Shown: piece by piece, positions 1,762-40,588 of the stretch | Layout of the letters: each line of letters opens with the position of its first letter | Numbering within the stretch: position 1 is the first letter of the stretch | Origin: a virus | Virus record (IMG/VR): IMGVR_UViG_3300029915_000003 | Reading direction: 5' to 3' (one strand) | DNA length: 64,000 bases | The notes under the pieces: generated by a model | The model's database searches: none | Told to the model about the DNA's origin: nothing | What the model saw: only the letters and a program-made list of their open reading frames with translations | Position numbers and translations under genes: made by a program

Positions 1762-3045
1762 ATGGCTACCGTAGATATATTCAACACCCAAACCCAAGAG
1801 ACTTTTGAACTAGAGGTCTCCAATTCGGAAGAGTTGGAGATCTATCTACGTAGAAATATTAAATTCCTTAACAATAATGTACCTTTTGGTAACTTAGCCA
1901 AATGTTTGCAACTAATAGAAGATGATGGTAATTATCTATTAGACTTCTCCAAAGCAGAAGAGTTGTTTGACTCAATTCCAACTCAAAACATACCAGAAGC
2001 CATAGAATCAGACCTAAACAGCCACGCCCTTAGCAATTTAGGTAAATCAGAGTCTAGCGTACTGGAAGAAGAGTACGGTATCAAACCAGATAAATGGGCC
2101 AAAGTCCTAGGTAATAATCTCAAACCATTTAACCCAAAATTAGTAGCACCAAAGGTTATAAGTCCTTGGAATCAGGACGGAATAACCTTCTCCAAAGCCA
2201 TCAGATCTGCGTTTGATGCAAATAAAGTACATTACGTACATTTAGGTGGGAAGCACAGTAATGGTAGCATGGTAGCGTTTGATCCATCTACCAAAATACG
2301 TTACCTATTAAAGCCAGGATTTGGAGAGTCTTCTCCTGCGGCTGGTATTAGGGAAACCCCCTACACTCAATCTCAACGAGAAACGGCCTTTTACCATGCA
2401 TCTGTTTCCATGGATTTAGGTAATTATTTACCTGAATGCCAAATGTTGTTGTTTGATGGCAAGGAAGTTGCTTGCATAAAAATGCTTCCGGACTACTTTG
2501 TAAATTACGTGGACTTCACTACTGAAGACCAGTTTTTAGGTAGAGAAGTTCTGGAAAACTATTTGGTTTCAGGAACCCTACATAAATGGGCTGTCATGGA
2601 TTACGTTCTCGGGAACGTAGATAGGCACAGCTCCAACCTAATGGTGGGTAGACCCAAAGGCAACAGCAGCGACGGGAATAAAGGCGTCACTGTTCGCCTA
2701 ATAGACCACGGTAGCACCTTGGCTGGTTTGGGTTTTGACCCAGCCAATGATCCTTCCAGCTATTTACCGTATTATTTACGTATGTGGAGTTCCATTTCCA
2801 AGTTCCAACGCTTGATCCCAAAAGACAGGTTTCACCAAATGCCCACAACTTCTTTGGAGGGTGAAAAGATTTTAAGAAACTGGTTCAAAGACCTTGATTT
2901 GGTTAAATTGGCATGGGTGTTAGAATCTTATGGAATAAACCCCCAACCCATGATTGCCCGTGCGACCCAAATACACCTAAATATGGCAAACGGAAGGCTG
3001 GATGAGGCAATAAACAAACTATGGGCTGGTTACGATAATCTTTAA
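1762..3045 (+). CDS. PI3K/PI4K/HipA-like kinase-fold protein
   Basis: YLLKP (ATP-binding Lys), RETAFY, DYVLGNVDRHSSNLM (catalytic loop), LIDHG (Mg-binding). Confidence 0.8.
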   Translation: MATVDIFNTQTQETFELEVSNSEELEIYLRRNIKFLNNNVPFGNLAKCLQLIEDDGNYLLDFSKAEELFDSIPTQNIPEAIESDLNSHALSNLGKSESSVLEEEYGIKPDKWAKVLGNNLKPFNPKLVAPKVISPWNQDGITFSKAIRSAFDANKVHYVHLGGKHSNGSMVAFDPSTKIRYLLKPGFGESSPAAGIRETPYTQSQRETAFYHASVSMDLGNYLPECQMLLFDGKEVACIKMLPDYFVNYVDFTTEDQFLGREVLENYLVSGTLHKWAVMDYVLGNVDRHSSNLMVGRPKGNSSDGNKGVTVRLIDHGSTLAGLGFDPANDPSSYLPYYLRMWSSISKFQRLIPKDRFHQMPTTSLEGEKILRNWFKDLDLVKLAWVLESYGINPQPMIARATQIHLNMANGRLDEAINKLWAGYDNL

Positions 3046-4216: not shown

Positions 4217-4948
4217 ATGATAGTATATGGATTAGTTTATGCTCTATTGGATCCTTTTGGAAAAATTAGATATATAGGTCAAACATGCGATACAATAGAG
4301 CAGAGATTTAAAGAACACCTATTTCCTTCAAATCTTAAAAATTTAGATCACAAAACCAATTGGATAAAATCATTATTATCAAAAAACCAAAAACCTACGA
4401 TAAGATTGCTTCAAGATAATATTCCTGTAAAATTCATAGAAACCAAAGAAAAACAATGGGATATGACTATTATTGATACCACTGAAACAGAATGGATTCG
4501 TCTATATAAACTAATTGGCGCAAAATTAACCAATAGCACAAATGGAGGGGGAGGTCAGCATGGAAGAATCCCAAGTAAAGAAACTTTACGTAAAATGTCT
4601 GAATCTCATAAGGGTAAAAACAATGGACCCGTAGCTGCTGCTAATATATCAAAAGCCTTAACAGGAAAGAAGAGAGCCCCATTTACAAAAGAACACAAAA
4701 GGAATATAGCGATAGGAGCTACAGGTAAGCTTCAATCAGAAGAATCAAAATATAAAAAATCAGTTACCTTGAAAGCAAACCAAAAGAACACAGAACATCT
4801 ACGTAAGCTATCGGAAGCAAGGAGGGGTGTGCCGCAAAGTCCAGAATTAATAGCAAAAAGAGTGGCTTCCTGTAAACTAACTCTTGAAAGAAACAAAAAA
4901 AAGAAAATAGATGCAATAAATGCTATATTTTCTTTTTTAATGTCTTAA
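4217..4948 (+). CDS. GIY-YIG homing endonuclease with NUMOD3 repeats
   Basis: VYALLDP..IRYIGQT, R..EH, LTN.T.GG; C-terminal basic SKETLRKMSESHKG-type repeats. Confidence 0.88.
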   Translation: MIVYGLVYALLDPFGKIRYIGQTCDTIEQRFKEHLFPSNLKNLDHKTNWIKSLLSKNQKPTIRLLQDNIPVKFIETKEKQWDMTIIDTTETEWIRLYKLIGAKLTNSTNGGGGQHGRIPSKETLRKMSESHKGKNNGPVAAANISKALTGKKRAPFTKEHKRNIAIGATGKLQSEESKYKKSVTLKANQKNTEHLRKLSEARRGVPQSPELIAKRVASCKLTLERNKKKKIDAINAIFSFLMS

Positions 4949-5799: not shown

Positions 5800-6321
5800 A
5801 TGGAAAAATCTAAAGAAAAATCAACCAAAGGTCCCCATAAGTGGATGGACAAATATGTCTTAGTAGACAAAGACGACTCAGCCTCTCTCGATAGGGACAG
5901 TGCTGTTGGTGAATTTCACAACAAACTCCCCAGAGAGGTAGCCGAAAAGGAAGCTTACCATAAATACACCCAAAAGGTCCATCAAGACGGGGCAATACAC
6001 CACTTAAAGGGAATGAAGGCTGCTGAAGCTACTGGAAATAAAGAAGCCAAAGAGTCCCATGGGTTAAAACTATATCTACATCTTAAGGCTTTGGGTGGAG
6101 ATCAAACAGAATTAGCATCTAAAATCAAGGCTTTGGCGGATGAAGACACATCTACCGGTACTTATAAGTTTCAAAGCCATTCTGGGGATGATCTTTTACA
6201 AGACTGCCTATCAAAAACAGAAACAAAAGACTATTTGCGTGAATTACTTAAAAATATGACCAAAAAACTTATCCAGAACGTCTTACAAGACAACAATCTT
6301 AATCATAATGAAATCAAATAA
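5800..6321 (+). CDS. hypothetical protein
   Basis: 173-aa ORF tightly coupled to its neighbours. Confidence 0.6.
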   Translation: MEKSKEKSTKGPHKWMDKYVLVDKDDSASLDRDSAVGEFHNKLPREVAEKEAYHKYTQKVHQDGAIHHLKGMKAAEATGNKEAKESHGLKLYLHLKALGGDQTELASKIKALADEDTSTGTYKFQSHSGDDLLQDCLSKTETKDYLRELLKNMTKKLIQNVLQDNNLNHNEIK

Positions 6322-7516
6322 AAAATACAAATGTGATATTTTAGACGGAACAAGGATCGGAAGATTGACTGTAGTCGAAAAATTAATAGAAAAGACTAAA
6401 AATGGTTCTTTGAAATATTTATGTAAATGTGATTGTGGCAATCAAAAAATCATAAAAGGAGCCAACCTTTATTCAACAAAAACAATTAAGGCGACACAAA
6501 GTTGTGGTTGTTTACAAAGGGAATCAATCAAATTAATATTTAAAGACTTAGAAATTATAGAAATTGGTAGCAGGGTGGGTCAAGTAACTATATTAAAAGA
6601 ACTAGAGATTCGCAATAAGAATGGAAGTAAATACTTTTTATGTAAATGCGATTGCGGTAAAGAGATAAAGACAACAGCGACAAGACTTAGAATCAAACAT
6701 AAAAGTTCTGCGAAATATTCAACCATAGAAAGTTGTGGATGTTTAAGAAGCGAACGACGGTTATCTGGCGGCAAAAATCCGCCTGGGTTAAATATCATTA
6801 ACAAGCTTGTTAGTGATTATATCACTGGGGCGAAACATAGAGGATATAGCAATACGCTCACCTGGGATGAGCATGTGTATTTATTTAAACAAAACTGTTA
6901 TTATTGTAATTTACCTCCATCGAATATTTTAAAAGCATATAATTCAAGTTATATTTATTCCGGTATTGATAGAATCGATAATACTATTGGATATACTATA
7001 GATAATGTTGTCTCATCTTGCAAGAAATGTAATATAGCAAAGTTCTCTGGCACACAGTTGAATTTCATTAAATGGATTAAGAGTTTATACGAATTTAAAG
7101 AAACAACGAACATTTTAATTGATTTCGATCCAAAATTCAGAGCATTGAATCAATTAATCAGTAAATACAAAACTTCAGCAAAACAAAGGAAACTAAAATA
7201 TGATTTAGACAAAGAAACAGCAATTTTCCTTTTCAAAGGGGCATGTATTTATTGTAAAAAATCGCCATACAGAATATTCAAGATAAGAGCAAAGAAAGAA
7301 TATTTATATGTCTATAACGGTATAGATAGAGTTGATAACCGTCAAGGATATATTAAGGAAAATGTTGTTTCTTGCTGCACACAATGTAATTATAGTAAAA
7401 GGGATTTGTCAGTACAAGAATTTAAAGATTGGACATTGAGAGCATACAACCATATGAAATCTAATGGTATTTTTGATAAAATAAAGCCCAAAGACAATAT
7501 TTACAAGAACTTTTGA
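6308..7516 (+). CDS. HNH homing endonuclease with duplicated modules
   Basis: Two GRLTV..CKCDCG..SCGC modules and two CxxC..GIDR.DN..GY...NVV..C..CN HNH-type modules. Confidence 0.85.
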   Translation: MKSNKKYKCDILDGTRIGRLTVVEKLIEKTKNGSLKYLCKCDCGNQKIIKGANLYSTKTIKATQSCGCLQRESIKLIFKDLEIIEIGSRVGQVTILKELEIRNKNGSKYFLCKCDCGKEIKTTATRLRIKHKSSAKYSTIESCGCLRSERRLSGGKNPPGLNIINKLVSDYITGAKHRGYSNTLTWDEHVYLFKQNCYYCNLPPSNILKAYNSSYIYSGIDRIDNTIGYTIDNVVSSCKKCNIAKFSGTQLNFIKWIKSLYEFKETTNILIDFDPKFRALNQLISKYKTSAKQRKLKYDLDKETAIFLFKGACIYCKKSPYRIFKIRAKKEYLYVYNGIDRVDNRQGYIKENVVSCCTQCNYSKRDLSVQEFKDWTLRAYNHMKSNGIFDKIKPKDNIYKNF

Positions 7517-10479: not shown

Positions 10480-12597
10480 ATGGCTAATGACACTTTAGAG
10501 AAAAATTGGAAGAGTGCCCTATTGGGTGGAGTTTTAGGAGCTGGACTTTTAGCTAACAACAGTATAGGTCACGAACCAGCCCTTCCCAAACCAATAGTTC
10601 AACCAAAGGTGGACTCACCTTGGTCTACTACCGGTTTGCATCCAGATTTATTGCCAATAGCCTTCCTAGAAAGTTCCGGGGGTAAATTTACCCAGCACCA
10701 ACCCCACTCGGGGGGTCCATACTACACGGCCTTTGGATCTGTGGGATTAAAACCCGTAAGTGCTCATGATTATTACCTAAAAAACAAACAAGTACAAGCT
10801 AAATATCCAGATCTTTCCGATAAGGATAAGTTCACTCAAAAACTAAAGACAGATCCAAAATTCTACAACGAAATGGCTTCAGACCTATGGACTCAAAACG
10901 CCAATAAGTTCAAAAACTCTTTACCTCATGCTGTTTATGCATGGCGACACGGACGCAAGGCGGCTATTGATGCAGGTAAAGAAACAGTACAAAATGATCC
11001 TTACGTTAAATCATATTTAGGATACCAATCTAAACAAAAAGACATGATACCTAAAGTTAAAGCCGTTAAGGCTCCAGAACACCCCAAAGGGATGACTTGT
11101 TCCGATGGTCAATGCTCGGTACCAAGTCATTACGATCCTGTAGCAGCCGCAAAATACGAAGAAAGCCTTGGCTTAAACAAAAGTCTAACAGAGGGTATGC
11201 TGTTTGATATATATATAAGCTGGGCGTTAGAAGAAGTTGAGGTGGAAGCTCAACTCTATGCCAAAGAAGGGAACACCCTCGCCTTACGTAATTTAGAAGA
11301 CAAAATTAAAGACGCCAATCAGTTATGGGAATCATTTTGCCTGAGGACCATGGGCGAAGTGATTTGTGTCGGAGGAATATCAGATGTGGGTAGAATCTTG
11401 TTGCACCAAGACTCTTTAGATGAATTACCGACAATTAAAAGCGAGATAGAGGCTATATTCGACTCTCCCGTAAGTATAGGAGCTGGTAGGGATTTAAAAG
11501 AATCCGACCAAGCCCTGTATATTTGCGCTAAAGAAACCCCTGGTAAAATAGTATTCTACACCCAAGAAATAGCATATAAAATCAAATTAATATCCGATTC
11601 TATGGCTAAATCCGAAAATGCCCCTGCGGCTCAAGCCAAGGAAGACGCTCAAGCTAAAAAAAGGAATTGGAAACAAGCCTTCTCTGCTCATGTCACTACC
11701 GCTGATCCATCTAAAAATTCCAATTGGCACAAAACGGGCTCTTTTAGAGGCAAGACTCATGCTGGTTTTATTCATGCCAAAGCCGGTGGGGATGTTCCAA
11801 GCGTACACAAGCCAAAGGCACCTGAACATACACCAGAAAGAGTTGCTGGACTCCGGAAGCCGAAGGATATTTTGAATGATTTAACCAACCTATCTGCCAA
11901 GGGTTCCGGTAAACCAAAAGAAGACATAGAAGGAATAAAAAAGAAGATAGTCAAACTCCTAGAAAACCTTAAATCAGAAGAACTAGAACAATTAAAAATA
12001 GCAAATCCAGACGCTTACGCTACGATTCTAAAGCTAATAGGAGCCATTACGTCCATCGGAAGGGCTCTTCCTGAAGCTCCAAGGGAGTCCAATGAAGACT
12101 GGGTACCACCACCCGCTCCAGCTCAAGTCGCCAAAACCGAAGATGTTAACATAGTACAGGCTGCATTCCTAGATAACACCAGCAAGGTTGTATATGGTAC
12201 TGGTTCTTGTCATGATATAAACTACTTACCTACCGAATACAACGAAAAAACCTATACGGAAGGTTTCCTTACAGATGAAAATGAATTCGTATCCAGAGAA
12301 GAAGCTGGGGGATTAAGATCTGAGGACGTATTCAAAACAAATGATTCCAAAGAGTTCCTTGCTAATTTGAATAAGGGGGGTATAAAGCTGCCATCAATTA
12401 AGGTGAAAAGGTTTATTCGTCCGAGCTATCCCATTGGAACAGAAAAACAAAACGGACTAGGAGTTCTAGAAATAAAGGTGCAACACTTAGGTCCGCAAGG
12501 CGAGCCAGGGGAAATAGGCTGGAACAAGATCGGCTCTGGCAAGATAATGGGTTCAGATGGCCACCCTATAAGTTCTCAAAATCAAAGAGCTAAATAA
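10480..12597 (+). CDS. multidomain internal virion protein: lytic transglycosylase-like + degenerate mCpol-like + small GFLT..FVSREEA domain
   Basis: IAFLESSGG..AFG..GL..AVYAW..G..YV (SLT/lysozyme-like); GEVICVGG..VSIGAG..L.E...AL..AK..GK (mCpol-like). Confidence 0.6.
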   Translation: MANDTLEKNWKSALLGGVLGAGLLANNSIGHEPALPKPIVQPKVDSPWSTTGLHPDLLPIAFLESSGGKFTQHQPHSGGPYYTAFGSVGLKPVSAHDYYLKNKQVQAKYPDLSDKDKFTQKLKTDPKFYNEMASDLWTQNANKFKNSLPHAVYAWRHGRKAAIDAGKETVQNDPYVKSYLGYQSKQKDMIPKVKAVKAPEHPKGMTCSDGQCSVPSHYDPVAAAKYEESLGLNKSLTEGMLFDIYISWALEEVEVEAQLYAKEGNTLALRNLEDKIKDANQLWESFCLRTMGEVICVGGISDVGRILLHQDSLDELPTIKSEIEAIFDSPVSIGAGRDLKESDQALYICAKETPGKIVFYTQEIAYKIKLISDSMAKSENAPAAQAKEDAQAKKRNWKQAFSAHVTTADPSKNSNWHKTGSFRGKTHAGFIHAKAGGDVPSVHKPKAPEHTPERVAGLRKPKDILNDLTNLSAKGSGKPKEDIEGIKKKIVKLLENLKSEELEQLKIANPDAYATILKLIGAITSIGRALPEAPRESNEDWVPPPAPAQVAKTEDVNIVQAAFLDNTSKVVYGTGSCHDINYLPTEYNEKTYTEGFLTDENEFVSREEAGGLRSEDVFKTNDSKEFLANLNKGGIKLPSIKVKRFIRPSYPIGTEKQNGLGVLEIKVQHLGPQGEPGEIGWNKIGSGKIMGSDGHPISSQNQRAK

Positions 12598-13710: not shown

Positions 13711-14707
13711 TACAGTTTCGGTAGATTCGCCTCCTTTGGCGACACCTCAATTGCTATCCAACACAGAAACCAGGGGTATTGTAGATACTTCTTGGGTATT
13801 GCGCACCGCTATTATGGCTGGTTTGGAAGATATACGCCAAAATCCAGAACTAATCAATTATGCGCTTTCCAATCTTTTCTTAATAGACCCTATAACCAAT
13901 AAAGACATAAGAACCACTATTATAAATACTGCTAAGGACTGGATTCTTAACAGTAAAATCTCAGTGGTGCTTTACCCCAAATTAGACGAAGTGGAATTTC
14001 CTTGTGTAACTATTAATATACTGGATTCTGTTGAAGTCGAAAACCAATTAGGAGACATCCACTACAAACCGTCCCAAGAAGGGAATACAGTAGATCCGTA
14101 CCTATTGGGACCAATCACCACCTCTGCCTATAATGTAGATACCGGTGAAATCACTCTACCCGCCAGTGCTGGCTCTATATACAGTACAGAAAGAATGGCT
14201 GTAATTGGTACGGACGGAAAAGAAATACCCATAGTCAAATCTTGGTATGGAAGCAGTATTTTCATTCCTCCTAATACAAATCCGTCCCTAGTTAATATCA
14301 TAAGTGTAGGAACCGCCTCCCCTAACGCTAGGACGAGGTTGGAGTCTGCTAGATTCCTAGAGAAATTTACCATTGGATGCTTTGCTCAAGGCGAACCGTC
14401 TTATACTATTTATCTCAATAGCATAATTATGTTTGTTTTGTTAAGATATCGAGAAAATCTACTAGAAGCAAGAGGTTACGAACGTACCACCGTAAGTAAT
14501 GGAGCTTTAACCAGCTTTTCTCAATTTATAGAAGGCAAGGAAAACGTATTTGGCCGAAATATCAATATAAGTGGATATACTAATGTAGTTTGGCCTAAGT
14601 ATACCTCGATCGTTCTTAATAGTGTTGTGACTCAAGTTGTGGCTCAAGTAGTTGGAGAAACCCCATCCAATCCGGTGCCGGGGAATATCTTGTGGACTTC
14701 AAAATAA
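13694..14707 (+). CDS. putative tail completion/terminator protein
   Basis: FPCVTINI..S.E motif, similar to tail terminators; upstream of sheath. Confidence 0.5.
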   Translation: MTTNVNTVSVDSPPLATPQLLSNTETRGIVDTSWVLRTAIMAGLEDIRQNPELINYALSNLFLIDPITNKDIRTTIINTAKDWILNSKISVVLYPKLDEVEFPCVTINILDSVEVENQLGDIHYKPSQEGNTVDPYLLGPITTSAYNVDTGEITLPASAGSIYSTERMAVIGTDGKEIPIVKSWYGSSIFIPPNTNPSLVNIISVGTASPNARTRLESARFLEKFTIGCFAQGEPSYTIYLNSIIMFVLLRYRENLLEARGYERTTVSNGALTSFSQFIEGKENVFGRNINISGYTNVVWPKYTSIVLNSVVTQVVAQVVGETPSNPVPGNILWTSK

Positions 14708-14754
14708 AGCATTTTTTGGCCAAACAAAATTACCGGAATCTTAATTTTAAACAG

Positions 14755-15663
14755 ATGGACAAGATAAGATACCATATCTATATATTAAAACATCCTATTA
14801 CTAATGAAATTAGATACGTAGGACAAACGAAAAATACTCTCTCCAACAGACTATATGATCATTTATATGAAGCAAGGAAAAGAAAAAATCTAACATACAA
14901 AAATAATTGGGTGTTTTCATTGCTGCAAAAAGAATTAAAACCAAAAATAGAAATGTTAGATTATGCTTGGGGGATAGAAGAGGCAAATCAAATAGAAAAA
15001 ACATATATTAAAAGATTCAAAGAAATGGGAAAAAGATTAACCAATTCAACCACAGGAGGAGAGGGGCATGTACCAATTCCATTAACAGAAGAACAAAAAG
15101 ATAAGTATCGCAAACAAGTTATAGAATTAAATACAGGGAAAATTTACAAAAGCCAAACACATGCCGCTAAAGAATTGGGAGTTCTACCTTCAAGTATATC
15201 CGCCATATGCAAGGGAAAGCATGCTTCTATTCATGGTTATCGATTTCAATACGGGAACACGCCGGTCGATTACAAGAACCCACATAAAGCATTGAAAAGA
15301 CCAATAATTGAAGTAAAAAGTGGAATTAAATACAACAATACAAAGGAAGCTGCCGAAACACTAAAGTTAGACAAAAGCCATATATCTGCTGTTTTAAGAG
15401 GAGATCGTATTCAAACGGGTGGTTGTCAATTTAAATACGCAGACGACTCGTCCGTATTTGTATTAAGAAATAGGAAATTCAATAACAAAAAGATCATAGA
15501 GACAACCACAAATACAATTTATAACAGTATCAAAGAAGCGGCTTTAAAAAATAACCTTAAGCCATGTTCCCTGTCACAAGCAATTAACGGAAAAATCAAA
15601 AAGCTAAGATGTGGTCTTGTGTTTAAGTTTTTAATAGAAACACAACCAAACCGTAATATTTAA
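14755..15663 (+). CDS. GIY-YIG homing endonuclease with three NUMOD1/IENR1-type repeats
   Basis: IYILKHP..IRYVGQT, LTNSTTGGEG; 3x K.IIE...G..Y.S..EAA..L; start 14755 follows late motif. Confidence 0.88.
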   Translation: MDKIRYHIYILKHPITNEIRYVGQTKNTLSNRLYDHLYEARKRKNLTYKNNWVFSLLQKELKPKIEMLDYAWGIEEANQIEKTYIKRFKEMGKRLTNSTTGGEGHVPIPLTEEQKDKYRKQVIELNTGKIYKSQTHAAKELGVLPSSISAICKGKHASIHGYRFQYGNTPVDYKNPHKALKRPIIEVKSGIKYNNTKEAAETLKLDKSHISAVLRGDRIQTGGCQFKYADDSSVFVLRNRKFNNKKIIETTTNTIYNSIKEAALKNNLKPCSLSQAINGKIKKLRCGLVFKFLIETQPNRNI

Positions 15664-18100: not shown

Positions 18101-20602
18101 ATGGCTCAATCAATTAATTTCGCAAATCAAACAATCACCATTCCTGGCGGCTACGCGCAATACAACGTGCAGAATGTAGCTAATGGTTTAGCCTCAAGTG
18201 GTATTATTACGCTTGTTGGCGAATCAGAGATTGGTCCCTCATGGAATCTAGAAGCCGATCTAGACCTAAATATCTTTGGACCAGACCAATTAGCAGATGC
18301 TATTGCCAAGTATGGAGATGGTCGTCTAACCGACGCTATGCGTCAAGGAATCGGTCCATGCCTAGATCCAGCCATTACCGGCTCACCTTCTGGTTTTATT
18401 CTGGTAAAGACCAATGCAGGAACCCAAGCTTCCCTAGTAATTGCCGACCAAGTTAGCGGCAATTACGGTACTTTGTTTAGTCAAAACTACGGGGCTCAAT
18501 TCAACAGCCTTTTTAATACCATTTCAGACTCAGTATCAGAAATAGTGCCTGGATTTACAGCTACTTATATTCCTCCTCAGACCGCTTTCGGTTTAGGCAT
18601 TCGCGTAGATGGTGGCTCCTCATCCGCCATTACGGTTGCCAATTCACCCGAACTACCAGCGGCTGTAGTTTCGGCTCTAAATGGTGTAAGTGGCATTACC
18701 GCTACGGGGGGTGTGGCTCAAACACTTCTATCTGGTGGAACCACGGTATCCGGTGTTGTTAATAGCGGTACTGGTTTCGGCACTTCTGTAACTTTCTCCA
18801 TTCCCGGTTCGTATCCCACCCCATCGGTAGGAGATACTCTTTTGATGCTAACGAATACCTTGACGGCTAGCTGGAAGGGAGCCTATTCAGTAACCGGTAC
18901 ATCTACTGGTACTATTACAGCCATTAAATTAGCTGATATTGGTGGAACTTCTGGTGTAGTTACTACTCCTACCGGAACTCCATCTGCAAGTCTAACAAGT
19001 TCAGACATGGAAACGTACACAGCCATTAATGTTGTTACCTCTTCAACTCTAATCGATGGTTTGGGCAAATCACTAGAAATACTACAAACTAGTGGCTCTG
19101 CTGCTGAAACCCTATTCTACGTTCCCGGAACTGCGGTTCCAAGTGGAGTTATTGCTACCTCTACCACTCCTGAATTAAACGTTTCAGCGGCTGAACGTGT
19201 CGTTGGTATGTCCATCCTCAATGCGGCCACCAATAATGCTTATAATTTCACTGCCGGTGGACAAGTTGTATTAGAAGTTGGTTATTACACCGCTGCGACA
19301 GCTACAATGACCATTGGTGTGGTTAATGGAGTTCCCAGCTTCTCAACTACAGTAAGCGGTGGAGCCGGAGCCAGCATTGCCACAACCCCTCTAAGCCAAT
19401 TCTCCACTGTAGGAGCTATGGCTACCTGGATTAGCAGCAAACTAGGCTATTACGCCGTTCCTTTTAACGCTACTATTGGTTTAATGCCTACTTCTTCTTT
19501 GGACTATGGTACGTTTGGTATTGCTACCAGCCAAAATACAGCCAGCAAAGCTACTGTAGGTCCGGGTAGGATAAAGTCAGATGCGACTTCGTTCTTCAAC
19601 GCTCTAAGTGCTTCTGGAACAGAACAACTAAACAGTCCTGCCGCTAGGGCCAGTTCTGGTCTACCAGCCAATATCACCAGTGTACCATTGGCCGGGGGAA
19701 CCTTGGGTGGAACTACTGAAGCTCAATTCCAAGCTGCTATCGATGCTTGCCAATCTGTTACAACCAACTTCATCGTTCCTCTTATAAGCCAAAACGCCTC
19801 TTTGGATATCGCCAGTGGATTAACCGATCCTTCTTCGACATACCAAATCGATGCGGTTAACTCATACGTATTAAAGCACTGCAACTTCATGTTCGGTCCT
19901 CCCAATATGGGAAATCGTCAAGGGTTCCTCTCGAAGAGGGACACTCTAGCGAATTGTGAACAAGCTGCTGCCAACCTAAATAGCTCTTTGGTTAGTATGG
20001 CTTTCCAAGACATTAAAATCGTAGAAGCTAACGGTATAGTTCAAGAACAACCTTGGGCTAATGCGGTTACAGCTGCGGCAATACAAGCGGCTGGATTCTA
20101 TCAAGGTATATTCTTCAAATCTATCGATGTCAGTGGTGCGGTTCAAGCGGCTGGAGATTTCAACCCCAAGAACCGTAGCCAATTAACTGCGGCTCTCAAG
20201 AGTGGATTATTGATTATACAACCTGTAAATGGTTTCCGCTATGTTTCAGACCAAACCACCTACGGTACGGATAACAATCCAATCTACAACTCAATCCAAG
20301 CGATTTATGCGGCCAACCTATGCGCTCTAACTCTAGCTCAACGTATGGAAACAGCCTATGTAGGTAAATCCCTAGCAGACACCAGTGCTTCCTTGGCTTT
20401 GGCTTCAATTGACCTAATTTGCCAAAATCTATTTAATGCTAAATTGATTGCGGCCAGCACTGGAGCGCCAAAGGGATACACTAACGCATCCGTAAGGATC
20501 GTTGGTCCTCAAATGATGGTTCAATTGGACTTATACGTCGCTACTTGTTTGTACTTTGTAACCATTAATTTCAACGTACAACAAATCGTCCAAAGCGCCT
20601 AA
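18101..20602 (+). CDS. contractile tail sheath protein
   Basis: N-terminal IPGGY..LVGESEIGP; C-terminal sheath domain (L..GL.II..GFRYVSDQTTY..IQ..YVG); precedes tube. Confidence 0.88.
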   Translation: MAQSINFANQTITIPGGYAQYNVQNVANGLASSGIITLVGESEIGPSWNLEADLDLNIFGPDQLADAIAKYGDGRLTDAMRQGIGPCLDPAITGSPSGFILVKTNAGTQASLVIADQVSGNYGTLFSQNYGAQFNSLFNTISDSVSEIVPGFTATYIPPQTAFGLGIRVDGGSSSAITVANSPELPAAVVSALNGVSGITATGGVAQTLLSGGTTVSGVVNSGTGFGTSVTFSIPGSYPTPSVGDTLLMLTNTLTASWKGAYSVTGTSTGTITAIKLADIGGTSGVVTTPTGTPSASLTSSDMETYTAINVVTSSTLIDGLGKSLEILQTSGSAAETLFYVPGTAVPSGVIATSTTPELNVSAAERVVGMSILNAATNNAYNFTAGGQVVLEVGYYTAATATMTIGVVNGVPSFSTTVSGGAGASIATTPLSQFSTVGAMATWISSKLGYYAVPFNATIGLMPTSSLDYGTFGIATSQNTASKATVGPGRIKSDATSFFNALSASGTEQLNSPAARASSGLPANITSVPLAGGTLGGTTEAQFQAAIDACQSVTTNFIVPLISQNASLDIASGLTDPSSTYQIDAVNSYVLKHCNFMFGPPNMGNRQGFLSKRDTLANCEQAAANLNSSLVSMAFQDIKIVEANGIVQEQPWANAVTAAAIQAAGFYQGIFFKSIDVSGAVQAAGDFNPKNRSQLTAALKSGLLIIQPVNGFRYVSDQTTYGTDNNPIYNSIQAIYAANLCALTLAQRMETAYVGKSLADTSASLALASIDLICQNLFNAKLIAASTGAPKGYTNASVRIVGPQMMVQLDLYVATCLYFVTINFNVQQIVQSA

Positions 20603-38053: not shown

Positions 38054-40588
38054 ATGGCTACTACTTATGCAAATCCACCCCAAGATACCACTCCGCTAGA
38101 TACTATAGACCACACAATCATTCCGATTGGTGGTAACAATCTCAATCCTACCCTATTTGCCCAGGTAGGCACGGATGCCACCTTATGGAATAAAGCTTTC
38201 CCTTATAGATTTCAGATACTTGAACAGGATCCCATTAAAGGTCTAATGAATACAGGTAGATATTTCGACCTACCCATCCCACCGGAAGCTTTGGAAATCA
38301 ACACACCCTTTGCCATTAATACATCTGTAACCCTAAATGGTATTATAGAACAACACAATGCGTTCCCATTGCTCAATATCTTTCTTAGGGGCTCTACGGG
38401 TGTATTAAACAAACTAAACGTAAGGACTGGGAGTAATCAATTACCAGCCAAAGGTATTCTTGCTGGTACAATAAACGCTGTAAATGCCTTTGCTAAAGAT
38501 ATTAAAAGCTTAAATGCACAACCAGGACCAAATACGGCTATTTATTCTCCTTCACTGATAGGAAATACAGATTTTTCAGGAAGCGGTCAGTCTCTTTCAG
38601 ATGCAGTAACTGGAGCTGTTAATGCCTCTTTGGCTGGAACCGGCTATTCCAGGTTCCTGGCCTTACGTAACTTCTTAGAATCATACGCTATTTTGAAGAA
38701 ACAACAAGCCTACCAAGGATATCGATTAGCATTTACCACCTACAAAGACCAATATAGTTATATTTGTACTCCCAAGATGTTCCGTATGGTAAGATCTGCG
38801 GAAAGTCCTTTCGAGTTTAAATACGAAATACAATTGGAATCTTGGCAAAGAATCAAAGCTGACCAAATTAAACCAAATTTTAGCGGTCAGCATCGTGCAT
38901 CGCAAGCCAATAATAGTACTTGGCAAAACATACTGAAATACGTTCAATTAGGATTGACCTTACTAAACGACCTTTCCGGTATAATTTCAGGTGTAATCAG
39001 TGACGTTCAAGGCATTTTGAATGTTGTTAGGGAAATATCATTATTCCTTAAGAATCTGGTAGGAGTAGCGTTACAAGCTGCCGACATGCCTGCGGTCATT
39101 GTTAATAACCTAAAAAATGCTATTTTAGCTTCTATAAATAATATAGCTACCGCTACTGCTGGTTCCAATGGTCAATTTCCGTCCAGTCAACAAGTTCAAG
39201 CAGATTATCAAGCCTGTTTAAGATGGTGGACGACCCAGCAAATGGTTAATCCAATAGTGATAAACGGTCCTGTTAACAATATGTTAAGGACTAATGTGGA
39301 TTACATATTTGAAAATCCAAGCCAGCACTATGGGTTTTTCAACTCTATTGCTTTGAATAGTCTAAACAACATGACTTCAGCTATACAAGCTCAAATCAAT
39401 ACAGAGATTCAAAATGTATCGGCTTACAGTGTGGTTGATTTTAAGAACGCAGTAGCCACCCTACAGAACGCATCGAATGTATATGCTCAAGCGGTAGGAG
39501 CTAGTGACCCAACCTATATAGAAACCTACCAATTGGGATCTGTAAATCAAATAAGGGACACACCTACAGATGATGATTATGCGGTATTAAATACCATTAA
39601 TGATATGATCATTCAAACCAACAATATAATAGCAGCTCTACAAAGCAATACAAACATCACAACACCTCAAGCGGTTACATTTGTTGCAAATCTAGCAAAT
39701 CAGGCCGGAATACCGTTTGATATTCCTTTAAGTAAATATCCAATTCCATTTCCTTACGGTGGAACCCTTGAAATGATAGCTCAAAATTACCTAGGAGATC
39801 CAGATAAATGGATAGAAATAGCCACCCTGAATGGCTTAAGGTCTCCCTATGTAGACGAAATAGGATTTTTGCTAGATTTAACCACCAATGGCAACAACGA
39901 CACTATTACCGTAGCGGATGTAAGCAATCTAATACTAGGGCAAACAGTATGGATTGGTTCCAATACGGTGCCAGTACAATCCAGGTCTATTTTGGCAATT
40001 AATAATCTAAGTCCAGATAGCTGGTCTGTGACCTTGGATGGTCCAGATGATCTAGGTATACTAAAAACTAGTGACAATGCCTATTTACATGCATTTTTAC
40101 CATTTACCGTAAACTCACAAGGATTCGTAGCTATTCCATCTCAAAATCCACCGGTTGGAGCTAGCGATCCTGTATCTAGAAACGATCAAATCAGTGTTGC
40201 CCAGCAAATATTCGATGCTGCTGGTACAGATTTATTAATAGACTCCGACAACGACCTAATTATAACTCAAAACGGTGATTGCAGATTAAGCCAAGGTGTC
40301 CAAAATATCATCCAAACCCTCAAAATTCTTATCGAATTACCAAGAGGGTCTCTCCTACATCACCCTACAATAGGTGTAAATCTAGTAGGTGGCAGTTTGG
40401 CAGACCTGAGCGCTACAGACATAGCATCTACCATCAAAACAGCTATAGATCAAGATGGTTTTTTCAGCAATTGGACATATTCCGTTACAGTAAAGGTTGA
40501 CTCCAATTGGGCCAATGTAACCATTAACCTAAATGTAAGCAATGTACAACAATTACTGCCAATTACATTCAAGCTAAACATTAACTAA
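38054..40588 (+). CDS. baseplate fusion protein: tube-initiator-like + LysM-like + gp25-like
   Basis: LPIPPE..I.L.G.TG; TLEMIAQNYLGDPDKWIEIATLNGL; GTDL..DL..G.QN..Q..PRGSL..HP..G. Confidence 0.7.
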   Translation: MATTYANPPQDTTPLDTIDHTIIPIGGNNLNPTLFAQVGTDATLWNKAFPYRFQILEQDPIKGLMNTGRYFDLPIPPEALEINTPFAINTSVTLNGIIEQHNAFPLLNIFLRGSTGVLNKLNVRTGSNQLPAKGILAGTINAVNAFAKDIKSLNAQPGPNTAIYSPSLIGNTDFSGSGQSLSDAVTGAVNASLAGTGYSRFLALRNFLESYAILKKQQAYQGYRLAFTTYKDQYSYICTPKMFRMVRSAESPFEFKYEIQLESWQRIKADQIKPNFSGQHRASQANNSTWQNILKYVQLGLTLLNDLSGIISGVISDVQGILNVVREISLFLKNLVGVALQAADMPAVIVNNLKNAILASINNIATATAGSNGQFPSSQQVQADYQACLRWWTTQQMVNPIVINGPVNNMLRTNVDYIFENPSQHYGFFNSIALNSLNNMTSAIQAQINTEIQNVSAYSVVDFKNAVATLQNASNVYAQAVGASDPTYIETYQLGSVNQIRDTPTDDDYAVLNTINDMIIQTNNIIAALQSNTNITTPQAVTFVANLANQAGIPFDIPLSKYPIPFPYGGTLEMIAQNYLGDPDKWIEIATLNGLRSPYVDEIGFLLDLTTNGNNDTITVADVSNLILGQTVWIGSNTVPVQSRSILAINNLSPDSWSVTLDGPDDLGILKTSDNAYLHAFLPFTVNSQGFVAIPSQNPPVGASDPVSRNDQISVAQQIFDAAGTDLLIDSDNDLIITQNGDCRLSQGVQNIIQTLKILIELPRGSLLHHPTIGVNLVGGSLADLSATDIASTIKTAIDQDGFFSNWTYSVTVKVDSNWANVTINLNVSNVQQLLPITFKLNIN

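Follow-up and report, generated by a model that had tools for sequence, protein, structure and literature searches.

A catalytically degenerate mCpol-fold domain within a modular late protein of an uncultured Mx1-like phage

What use might a phage have for a nucleotide-synthase fold from which the catalytic residues have been replaced? The question is raised by P0002, a 705-residue protein encoded in a 64,000-nucleotide stretch (hereafter the window) of the IMG/VR virus record IMGVR_UViG_3300029915_000003. An earlier note, made from the letters of this DNA alone, had seen in it a dead domain resembling the minimal CRISPR polymerase (mCpol); the 143 residues that it quoted agree with our translation of 11182–11610 (+) and correspond to residues 235–377 of P0002 (Table 1). 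Sequence comparison and structural modelling confirm this segment as a true mCpol homologue, while its residues make canonical catalysis and canonical nucleoside triphosphate (NTP) binding very unlikely. The explanation that we favour, with somewhat better than even odds (about 0.55), is that of a pseudo-enzyme module in a protease-punctuated, probably packaged protein, its fold being kept for a non-catalytic role, likely dimerisation or cargo organisation.

An mCpol fold below the reach of domain models

Pfam and PHROGs scans of the open reading frame (ORF) and of the domain gave no match, nor did a single-sequence search of the PDB. The Pfam mCpol model found nothing in residues 225–390 even at E ≤ 10 (gathering score 26.4 bits), and a six-frame PF18182 search of the 126-kb phage record did not pick the domain up. 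Homology surfaced only after these blank scans, in an exhaustive phmmer search with residues 228–385 against 1.84 billion representative proteins, which returned 169 matches at E ≤ 1e-3 (for example P0007, E 3.2e-12). Matches tested against Pfam scored as mCpol (PF18182, E 1e-12 to 1e-14), and the phmmer E-values linking P0002 to such Pfam-scored mCpol proteins ranged from 3e-12 to 1e-8. With a 16-sequence family profile, two experimentally solved chains of OptS/mCpol, 9mnr and 9nwn, were matched at E ~1e-7; the domain is 18–19% identical to cellular OptS.

The AlphaFold2 (AF2) model of the domain, computed from an alignment of 144 domains, reached a mean predicted local distance difference test score (pLDDT) of 93.7 and shows the palm order β-α-α-β-β-α-β-α-β followed by a C-terminal helix. 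All five top Foldseek matches in the PDB were KpOptS (9pd0, 9mnr) or mCpol (9nwn), with template modelling (TM) scores on the target of 0.78–0.83 and root-mean-square deviations of 2.0–2.7 Å; GGDEF domains, GTP cyclohydrolase III and class III cyclases came next. The likeness to mCpol and the Cas10 palm proposed in the earlier note is thus borne out by phmmer, family profile and Foldseek alike: palm matches are found, and OptS/mCpol ranks ahead of GTP cyclohydrolase III. The sequence evidence for mCpol homology stands on its own, independent of the AF2 model.

A two-copy model of the domain scored 0.54, against 0.09 for the best of three controls; of the proteins solved as pairs, 20 of 30 reached the mark applied to this score, as did one of 23 solved as single chains. 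Contacts agreed between runs to at least 94%, with a partner pLDDT of at least 86, and the modelled interface centres on the hairpin (residues 293–307), together with residues 257–273 and 338–343. The model supports homodimer binding, although the pass may reflect likeness only, since OptS dimers have been solved.

Loss of the catalytic centre in a family that keeps the fold

The altered acidic motifs are real: 'WDGDxIG' of mCpol has become 'WALEEVE', and 'GGDEGR' has become 'GGISDVGR'. The catalytic residues of KpOptS are Asp6 and Asp57, with base contacts at S30 and N34 (PMC12657218), and those of Cst mCpol are D11 and D63/D64, the Asp6/D11 position being described as a canonical palm metal ligand (PMC13577387). 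When the domain was aligned for retention of the catalytic aspartates, as the earlier note had proposed, this position proved to be Ala249 in P0002, and it is Gly in each of its relatives P0003, P0005 and P0006. The second Asp of DGD is Glu251 (E, E and D in the same three relatives), the S30 equivalent is Glu273 (E, Q, Q) and the N34 equivalent is Lys277 (V, D, D). In place of the GGDE hairpin P0002 has GG-IS-D302-VGR, so that Asp302 is present, but after a two-residue insert relative to KpOptS Asp57 and Cst D63/D64; the relatives also keep one Asp there. The α4 Lys column reads K/L/T/L across the four proteins, and all four have lost the phosphate-loop glycines.

These positions distinguish two sorts of family member. 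Where both acids are present (92 members), the named positions of the DGDxIGRxVGR block are conserved at 75–100% and the α4 Lys column at 97%, and the two glycines of the loop after β1 stand at frequencies of 0.99 and 0.96 in intact members; this loop is replaced in P0002. In 52 acid-lacking members the block falls to 6–21%, except for the second Asp at 52%, most positions of block and α4 Lys together lying at 6–27%. The block is absent from P0002, P0003, P0005 and P0006, where GGDE and the α4 Lys column are likewise not kept and the β1 loop is variable. Core residues G292, G334, G336, E341, A345 and L346 are 83–100% conserved in intact and degenerate members alike. With the metal- and triphosphate-binding centre lost, residues 235–377 most likely make no nucleotide.

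Nearly all phmmer matches have the mCpol domain at their extreme N-terminus and also carry the C-terminal modules of P0002. We defined a family of Mx1-like mCpol carriers by an mCpol-type domain, a helical module and a characteristic tail, encoded before the neck and sheath genes; an 'AAFL...LPTEY' module is a further common part, and the tail is strongly conserved. P0002 belongs to this family, as do WNM70340.1 of Myxococcus phage Mx1 and the BFVD entry A0A6J5L1I5. The contigs of two relatives that we examined are phage-like, and many relatives lie on contigs of 150–180 kb. One relative, P0061, has an ART-PolyVal domain (PF18760) between mCpol and tail. PHROGs gave no informative name for the carrier part in ten relatives, and a word-based search with residues 470–705 matched P0003 only.

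A search with the tail alone retrieved 156 proteins, and all 120 of these that were listed have an mCpol-type domain by the family hidden Markov model (HMM); both acids are kept in 55 of the 120, and the other 65, some few of them truncated, are missing one. In a tree of the domain from which the motif columns had been left out, parsimony requires 16 switches between intact and degenerate, at least six of which are forced by well-supported branches, and terminal branches are longer for degenerate than for intact domains (0.80 versus 0.32). P0002, P0003, P0005 and P0006 form a clade (Shimodaira–Hasegawa-like approximate likelihood ratio test, SH-aLRT, 81–89) in which all four members are degenerate and have an extra N-terminal domain. 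Here the mCpol-like domain is the least conserved and fastest-evolving folded module: its identity to P0003, P0005 and P0006 is 44, 34 and 31%, compared with 59, 52 and 45% for the N-terminal domain. Since all tail-bearing relatives listed keep the fold although catalysis was often lost, the fold appears to be under selection independent of catalysis, with relaxed constraint. Where the active site used to be, two large degenerate subfamilies carry conserved motifs of their own, WDVIWGK together with AAGR in one and WRSTA-N together with TEGQ in the other (P0088, P0027, P0085, P0158–P0160, P0080, P0163 and P0115; and P0201, P0214, P0219, P0222, P0225, P0227, P0230 and P0238).

Putative protease sites, accompanying modules and genome setting

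The earlier note had bounded the domain by LNK↓S (residues 232–235) and MAK↓S (residues 375–378), the arrow marking the putative cut. Both are plausible protease sites, judged by a shared 8-mer and by conservation in P0003. The 8-mer, L.K[SA]L[ET][AE]G, occurs three times in the phage proteome (38,844 residues) and in none of 100 shuffles: at residue 10 of the capsid protein (LTK↓ALEAG), at residue 192 of the prohead-protease protein (LGK↓SLEAG) and at residue 232 of P0002 (LNK↓SLTEG). In the capsid protein of Mx1 the equivalent position reads LRK↓AMEAG. After the domain, 103 of 144 family members have an [LMIVF]xK[STA][EDLAQ] motif no more than 60 residues past β5, mostly at 20–30 residues, compared with 9.7 ± 2.8 for shuffled tails; its typical form is EYLxK↓A, and P0003 has LSK↓A there. 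All six [LMIVF]xK↓ sites of P0002 are positionally conserved in P0003, and throughout the family the conserved tail has another xK↓ site ahead of it. The capsid protein site is probably cut by the head protease, and because the P0002 motifs match this N-terminal site, the head protease probably cuts P0002 in the capsid as well. We found no proteomic data on cleavage and, when we looked for one, no paper on Lys↓Ser cleavage of myovirus capsid proteins; A511 and HK97 would be precedents. The motifs suggest a candidate protease code, x-K↓ followed by S, A, T or G, for the loading and release of cargo in Mx1-like phages.

The 642-residue prohead-protease protein contains, from residue 192 on (LGK↓SLEAGNCNSAPGTLTQGAALQRE), a repeat of the capsid protein's opening ~40 residues (LTK↓ALEAGNYNAAPSTLTQGAALQRE). 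The genes sharing this repeat lie outside the window, at 101104–102495 (−) and 105402–107330 (+) of the 126-kb record. By eye, the C-terminal part of the protease protein (DRxxxN and IDN motifs) resembles the PI3/PI4-kinase-like region of P0004, a 714-residue metagenomic protein that combines a NUDIX, a lytic-transglycosylase-like and a PI3/PI4-kinase-like domain.

Table 1. Features of P0002 and of its surroundings in the window (↓, putative protease cut; SAR, signal-arrest-release)
Feature	Residues	Position	Strand	Basis or remark
Whole ORF, P0002, modular late protein	705 in all	10480–12597	+	ORF list, translation
Gly/Ala-rich weakly hydrophobic helix, membrane- or SAR-like	11–30	10510–10569	+	Sequence reading; also in P0003, P0005, P0006
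Lytic-transglycosylase-like domain; Glu-Ser motif FLESSGGK at 62–69	~50–190	10627–11049	+	AF2, Foldseek
Putative head-protease site LNK↓SLTEG, directly before mCpol-like domain	232–239	11173–11196	+	Motif shared with capsid protein
Catalytically degenerate mCpol-fold domain (folded core ~242–360 plus C-terminal helix)	235–377	11182–11610	+	phmmer, profile, AF2, Foldseek, alignment
β1 and loop YISWALEEVE, replacing 'WDGDxIG'	245–254	11212–11241	+	Alignments; catalytic Asp to Ala249, second Asp to Glu251
β2-hairpin-β3 GEVICVGGISDVGRILL; GG kept, two-residue insert, D302 kept, GR kept	292–308	11353–11403	+	Alignments, AF2
β4 'VSIGAG', helix 'ESDQALYICAKETPGK', β5 'IVFY'	331–360	11470–11559	+	Core common to active mCpols and GGDEF domains
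Putative protease site MAK↓SE, after mCpol-like domain	375–379	11602–11616	+	Family motif statistics
Lys/Pro/Ala-rich linker	378–470	11611–11889	+	Sequence reading
Helical module (core 490–530), in most family members	471–552	11890–12135	+	blastp of C-terminal part against 150 mCpol matches
Putative protease site VAK↓TE, before 'AAFL' module	550–554	12127–12141	+	P0003 VQK↓SE and P0005 VNK↓SE at same boundary
'AAFL...HD..LPTEY' module	553–629	12136–12366	+	C-terminal comparisons
Putative site LNK↓GG, then C-terminal tail (family hallmark)	630–634 (site)	12367–12597	+	Alignment of 41 tails
PI3/PI4-kinase-like protein	427 in all	1762–3045	+	PF00454, 35.8 bits, over cut-off
Homing-endonuclease-type gene		4217–4948	+	
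Homing-endonuclease-type gene		6308–7516	+	
Homing-endonuclease-type gene		14692–15663	+	
Tail sheath gene		18101–20602		
Baseplate protein		38054–40588		

Ahead of the mCpol-like domain, the N-terminal helix sits just after an LEK↓N motif and before the cell-wall domain, and by its sequence it resembles a signal-arrest-release or membrane-insertion segment. The N-terminal domain had no Pfam match and no sequence match in the PDB. Its AF2 model (pLDDT 83.5) gave top Foldseek matches in the PDB that were all lytic transglycosylases, if weak ones (Slt, 6fc4, E 7.8e-3, TMq 0.50), and the matches include phiKZ gp144 and the T7 core protein gp16; the Glu of the E-S motif is kept in seven of eight homologues of this domain. 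This lytic-transglycosylase-like domain is also found inside a 1479-residue Mx1 protein annotated as a NUDIX hydrolase (OR576727.2, 24404–28843). Because it occurs in this fusion and in that of P0004, the cell-wall module moves between cargo proteins.

Behind the domain, the linker is 50% identical to that of P0003, cannot be aligned to P0005 and matches P0006 weakly (29%, E 0.027). The order of the modules is shuffled within the family, since the 'AAFL' module directly follows mCpol in some relatives. The consensus of 41 tails is K.KVQH..DG..GW..V.AGQ..S.DGHPISS.NP.GK, in which K and W are invariant and ten more columns are conserved at 90% or above.

The tail sheath gene and the baseplate protein, both downstream of P0002, assign the DNA to a phage. 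A 12-kb query matched none of 50,697 phage records by megablast; by tblastn, Myxococcus phage Mx1 was the sole match among phage records. Between the 126-kb record and Mx1, tblastn gave matches at 30–55% identity that take in the terminase, the portal, the capsid and prohead-protease proteins, the sheath and many genes around them, with their order kept. The P0002 gene is syntenic with that of WNM70340.1, the counterpart of its mCpol and C-terminal parts, which likewise lies four genes upstream of the sheath, in the block before the neck and sheath genes. P0003 is a full-length homologue at 46% identity, P0005 and P0006 have the same architecture, and the relatives in the clade are 35–46% identical to P0002 overall. 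As three independent metagenomic homologues share its architecture, we rejected the reading of the ORF as an assembly chimera. From its sequence and setting, P0002 is a modular late protein of a large uncultured Mx1-like myovirus.

Several homing-endonuclease-type genes are scattered among the late genes: one is of GIY-YIG type and has NUMOD domains, another matches homing-endonuclease families of PHROGs, and a third is HNH/endonuclease VII-like. The GIY-YIG gene separates two genes that adjoin in Mx1. The 427-residue kinase-like protein, 39% identical to the product of an Mx1 'kinase' gene, bears LGK↓SE-type motifs and is another enzyme-bearing protein of the pre-sheath block. We found no second intact mCpol elsewhere in the 126-kb record and rejected pairing with such a partner; the only other palm-type domain there is GGDEF-like. 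It belongs to P0154 (375 residues; G000:C1:107805–108932, +; L005:7806–8933), encoded outside the window, where its gene adjoins that of the prohead protease among the head genes. At its N-terminus P0154 has a GGDEF-like domain (sub-threshold in Pfam, GGDEF E 1.1e-3, with a weak PF18182 match), which is joined to a GNAT acetyltransferase domain, with an IYK↓SE motif between the two, and its Mx1 homologue is annotated 'nucleotide cyclase'. By its motifs IEGND and LEGDKF, P0154 could be active.

Possible roles and relation to known systems

According to the pseudo-enzyme explanation, the domain would descend from active mCpol modules that many related phages carry at the same place. It would stand in a series of hydrophobic helix, lytic-transglycosylase-like domain, mCpol-like domain, linker, helical module, further module and conserved tail, in which short [LMV]-x-K↓[S/T/G] motifs part the modules and the head protease probably cuts the protein inside the capsid, which would free an mCpol-like piece of ~16 kDa. 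The fold would then most likely serve to dimerise the cargo protein symmetrically, or to organise it, in the course of assembly. A non-catalytic job is suggested because the relatives found by their tails keep the mCpol fold, about half of them without a catalytic acid. Gene position and motifs suggest packaging in the virion and delivery at infection, and the family has a cargo character in the SLT-like N-terminal domain and, in one relative, ART-PolyVal.

Several points weigh against this explanation. We infer cleavage, packaging, dimerisation and inactivity from sequence and model, and the AF2 model leaned on an alignment dominated by intact mCpols. The intact/degenerate census rests on two alignment columns, and the phage genome record is only about 78% complete. 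Glu251 (E/E/E/D) and Asp302 (D/D/D/D, the last shifted by one) are kept in the clade; as KpOptS itself has a single hairpin acid (QAADG), residual metal binding is conceivable. The replacement motifs of several other degenerate subfamilies, finally, the two large ones among them, look like selection for a new pocket or function, not like decay or mere scaffolding.

These last motifs, placed as they are in the pocket, would also suit an injected nucleotide sponge or receptor, in which the dead palm dimer binds cyclic di- or tri-nucleotides or ATP between its hairpins and, being pre-packed, soaks up signals of the cyclic-oligonucleotide-based antiphage signalling system (CBASS), type III CRISPR or Panoptes type as the DNA enters. 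Degenerate GGDEF domains (PelD, PopA, LapD) and Cas10 Palm1 are nucleotide-binding modules, and both the predicted hairpin-to-hairpin dimer and the fold itself, the latter in all 120 tail-bearing relatives listed, are kept despite frequent loss of catalysis. We nevertheless regard a sponge as unlikely. Within the four-member clade the substrate contacts vary (S30 E/E/Q/Q, N34 K/V/D/D, first Asp A/G/G/G, Lys K/L/T/L) and the phosphate-loop glycines are gone, no RxxD I-site is apparent in the sequence upstream of the hairpin, and the domain evolves faster than its neighbours; this conservation pattern does not favour a sponge or decoy. No known phage sponge has an mCpol fold (review PMC13712596), and in Panoptes hosts signal sequestration would trigger, not block, defence (PMC12657218). 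We found no relation to the known sponges Acb2, Acb4, Tad1, Tad2, Sequestin, Lockin or TadIV-1, the structural matches being cyclases and polymerases only. A further reading, in which the dead mCpol serves as pre-packed immune interference, released by the protease and injected with the DNA so that its dimer binds host signal nucleotides or docks a host mCpol or Cas10-type synthase, seems to us rather improbable. The idea of a poison subunit that heterodimerises with host mCpol (OptS) or docks Cas10 and so stops signal synthesis draws on the fact that mCpol acts as a dimer with its active site at the interface (PMC12657230), an interface type that the degenerate domain is predicted to keep. 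It can be given hardly any weight: a block of OptS would lower the decoy signal, fire the Panoptes effector and harm the phage (PMC12657218, PMC12657230), and identity to cellular OptS is low.

Variation at the β1 loop within the clade, the lowest identity of any folded module, repeated independent losses and the longer branches of degenerate members would be expected of an evolutionary relic, that is, a decaying mCpol once useful in ancestral hosts, for example for topping up Panoptes decoy nucleotides, which has no function of its own and persists because its removal would disturb cargo spacing, folding or cleavage. We hold this, too, to be unlikely, as none of the 120 tail-bearing proteins listed is without the domain, its fold is predicted at very high confidence with a conserved core even in degenerate members, and the clade retains 31–44% identity in the domain among relatives 35–46% identical overall. 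That the domain is still an enzyme, with Glu251, Asp302 and Arg305 as a reduced working centre for a nucleotide signal or for another nucleotidyl-transfer or hydrolytic activity, is a distinctly improbable reading. One Asp per motif suffices in class III cyclases, and Glu251 and Asp302 are kept in the clade. KpOptS, moreover, is active without a canonical GGDD and with the single hairpin Asp57 (PMC12657218). Against these precedents stand the Ala or Gly at the Asp6/D11 position in all four clade members, the replaced glycine-rich loop after β1 and the changed base-contact residues.

Studies of mCpol have until now treated it solely as a bacterial enzyme, the synthase of the Panoptes guard system, and we found no paper describing a phage-encoded mCpol in the literature searched. 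In Mx1-like phages the fold is a constant component of a modular late protein, and because it is kept despite repeated loss of catalysis in about half of the relatives, its use to the phage cannot be only the making of nucleotides. The family thus offers a pseudo-enzyme and an enzyme that can be compared side by side. Should the domain prove a mere scaffold, its interest would be local, to phage assembly; should it bind signals or host synthases, it would represent a new class of counter-defence. Were the immune-interference reading true, a bacterial synthase fold would have been turned by phages into a non-catalytic inhibitor, and the acid-lacking half or so of the family would be a second functional class, not decay.

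Panoptes OptS/mCpol (PF18182; 9mnr, 9pd0, 9nwn; PMC12657218, PMC12657230, PMC13577387) has the same order of strands and helices in a palm of ~120–140 residues, and shares with P0002 the SxGxG strand, the E-x-D-x-A-L helix and a symmetric hairpin dimer, which is predicted here. The P0002 domain differs in having no first catalytic Asp, glycine-rich phosphate loop or base-contact residues, in scoring below the Pfam threshold, and in lying inside a 705-residue phage protein encoded in a structural-gene block, not in a bacterial defence island. No Panoptes partner (S-2TM-beta/2TM-beta or CARF-TM effector) was found beside the gene, whose neighbours are late and structural genes and homing endonucleases.

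Polyvalent proteins (Iyer, Burroughs, Anand, de Souza and Aravind 2017, PMC5512222) are likewise modular, combining cell-wall hydrolase, nucleotide-signalling (GGDEF, 2H, RelA/SpoT) and effector domains, and have been proposed to be delivered with the DNA. P0002 joins several unrelated domains in the same way (SLT-like, mCpol-like and further modules), and ART-PolyVal in P0061 ties the carrier family to them. In contrast, mCpol is not mentioned in the text of PMC5512222, the signalling domain of P0002 is probably inactive, and Pfam revealed neither MuF nor any other recognised anchor domain. The probable Lys cleavage at a capsid-protein-like motif would be a trait of the Mx1-like phage group. 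Palm folds without catalytic residues, such as degenerate GGDEF domains and Cas10 Palm1 (PelD, PopA, LapD, PdeA/CC3396, GdpP), are kept as receptors, allosteric modules or interaction surfaces; they represent another palm branch, whereas P0002 has neither the RxxD site nor ligand contacts conserved in its clade.

The T4 internal proteins and the ejection proteins of phiKZ and SPN3US (PMC7411985, PMC10052503) are packaged into the head, processed by the prohead protease at a short motif that serves for the capsid protein too, and ejected into the cell. T7 gp16, which bears a lytic transglycosylase at its N-terminus, is a structural match of the P0002 N-terminal domain. P0002 has no sequence kinship with any of these proteins; its motif ends in Lys, not Glu, and for its family packaging and ejection are putative. 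Of the same family are the Mx1-like mCpol carriers, which share with P0002 the mCpol domain, the K↓A/S site that follows it, the helical module, the tail and the gene position. Most of the carriers listed start with mCpol, and about half to two-thirds keep DGD/GGDE; in P0002, as in P0003, P0005, P0006 and Mx1 itself, mCpol is internal, following the lytic-transglycosylase-like domain, and degenerate.

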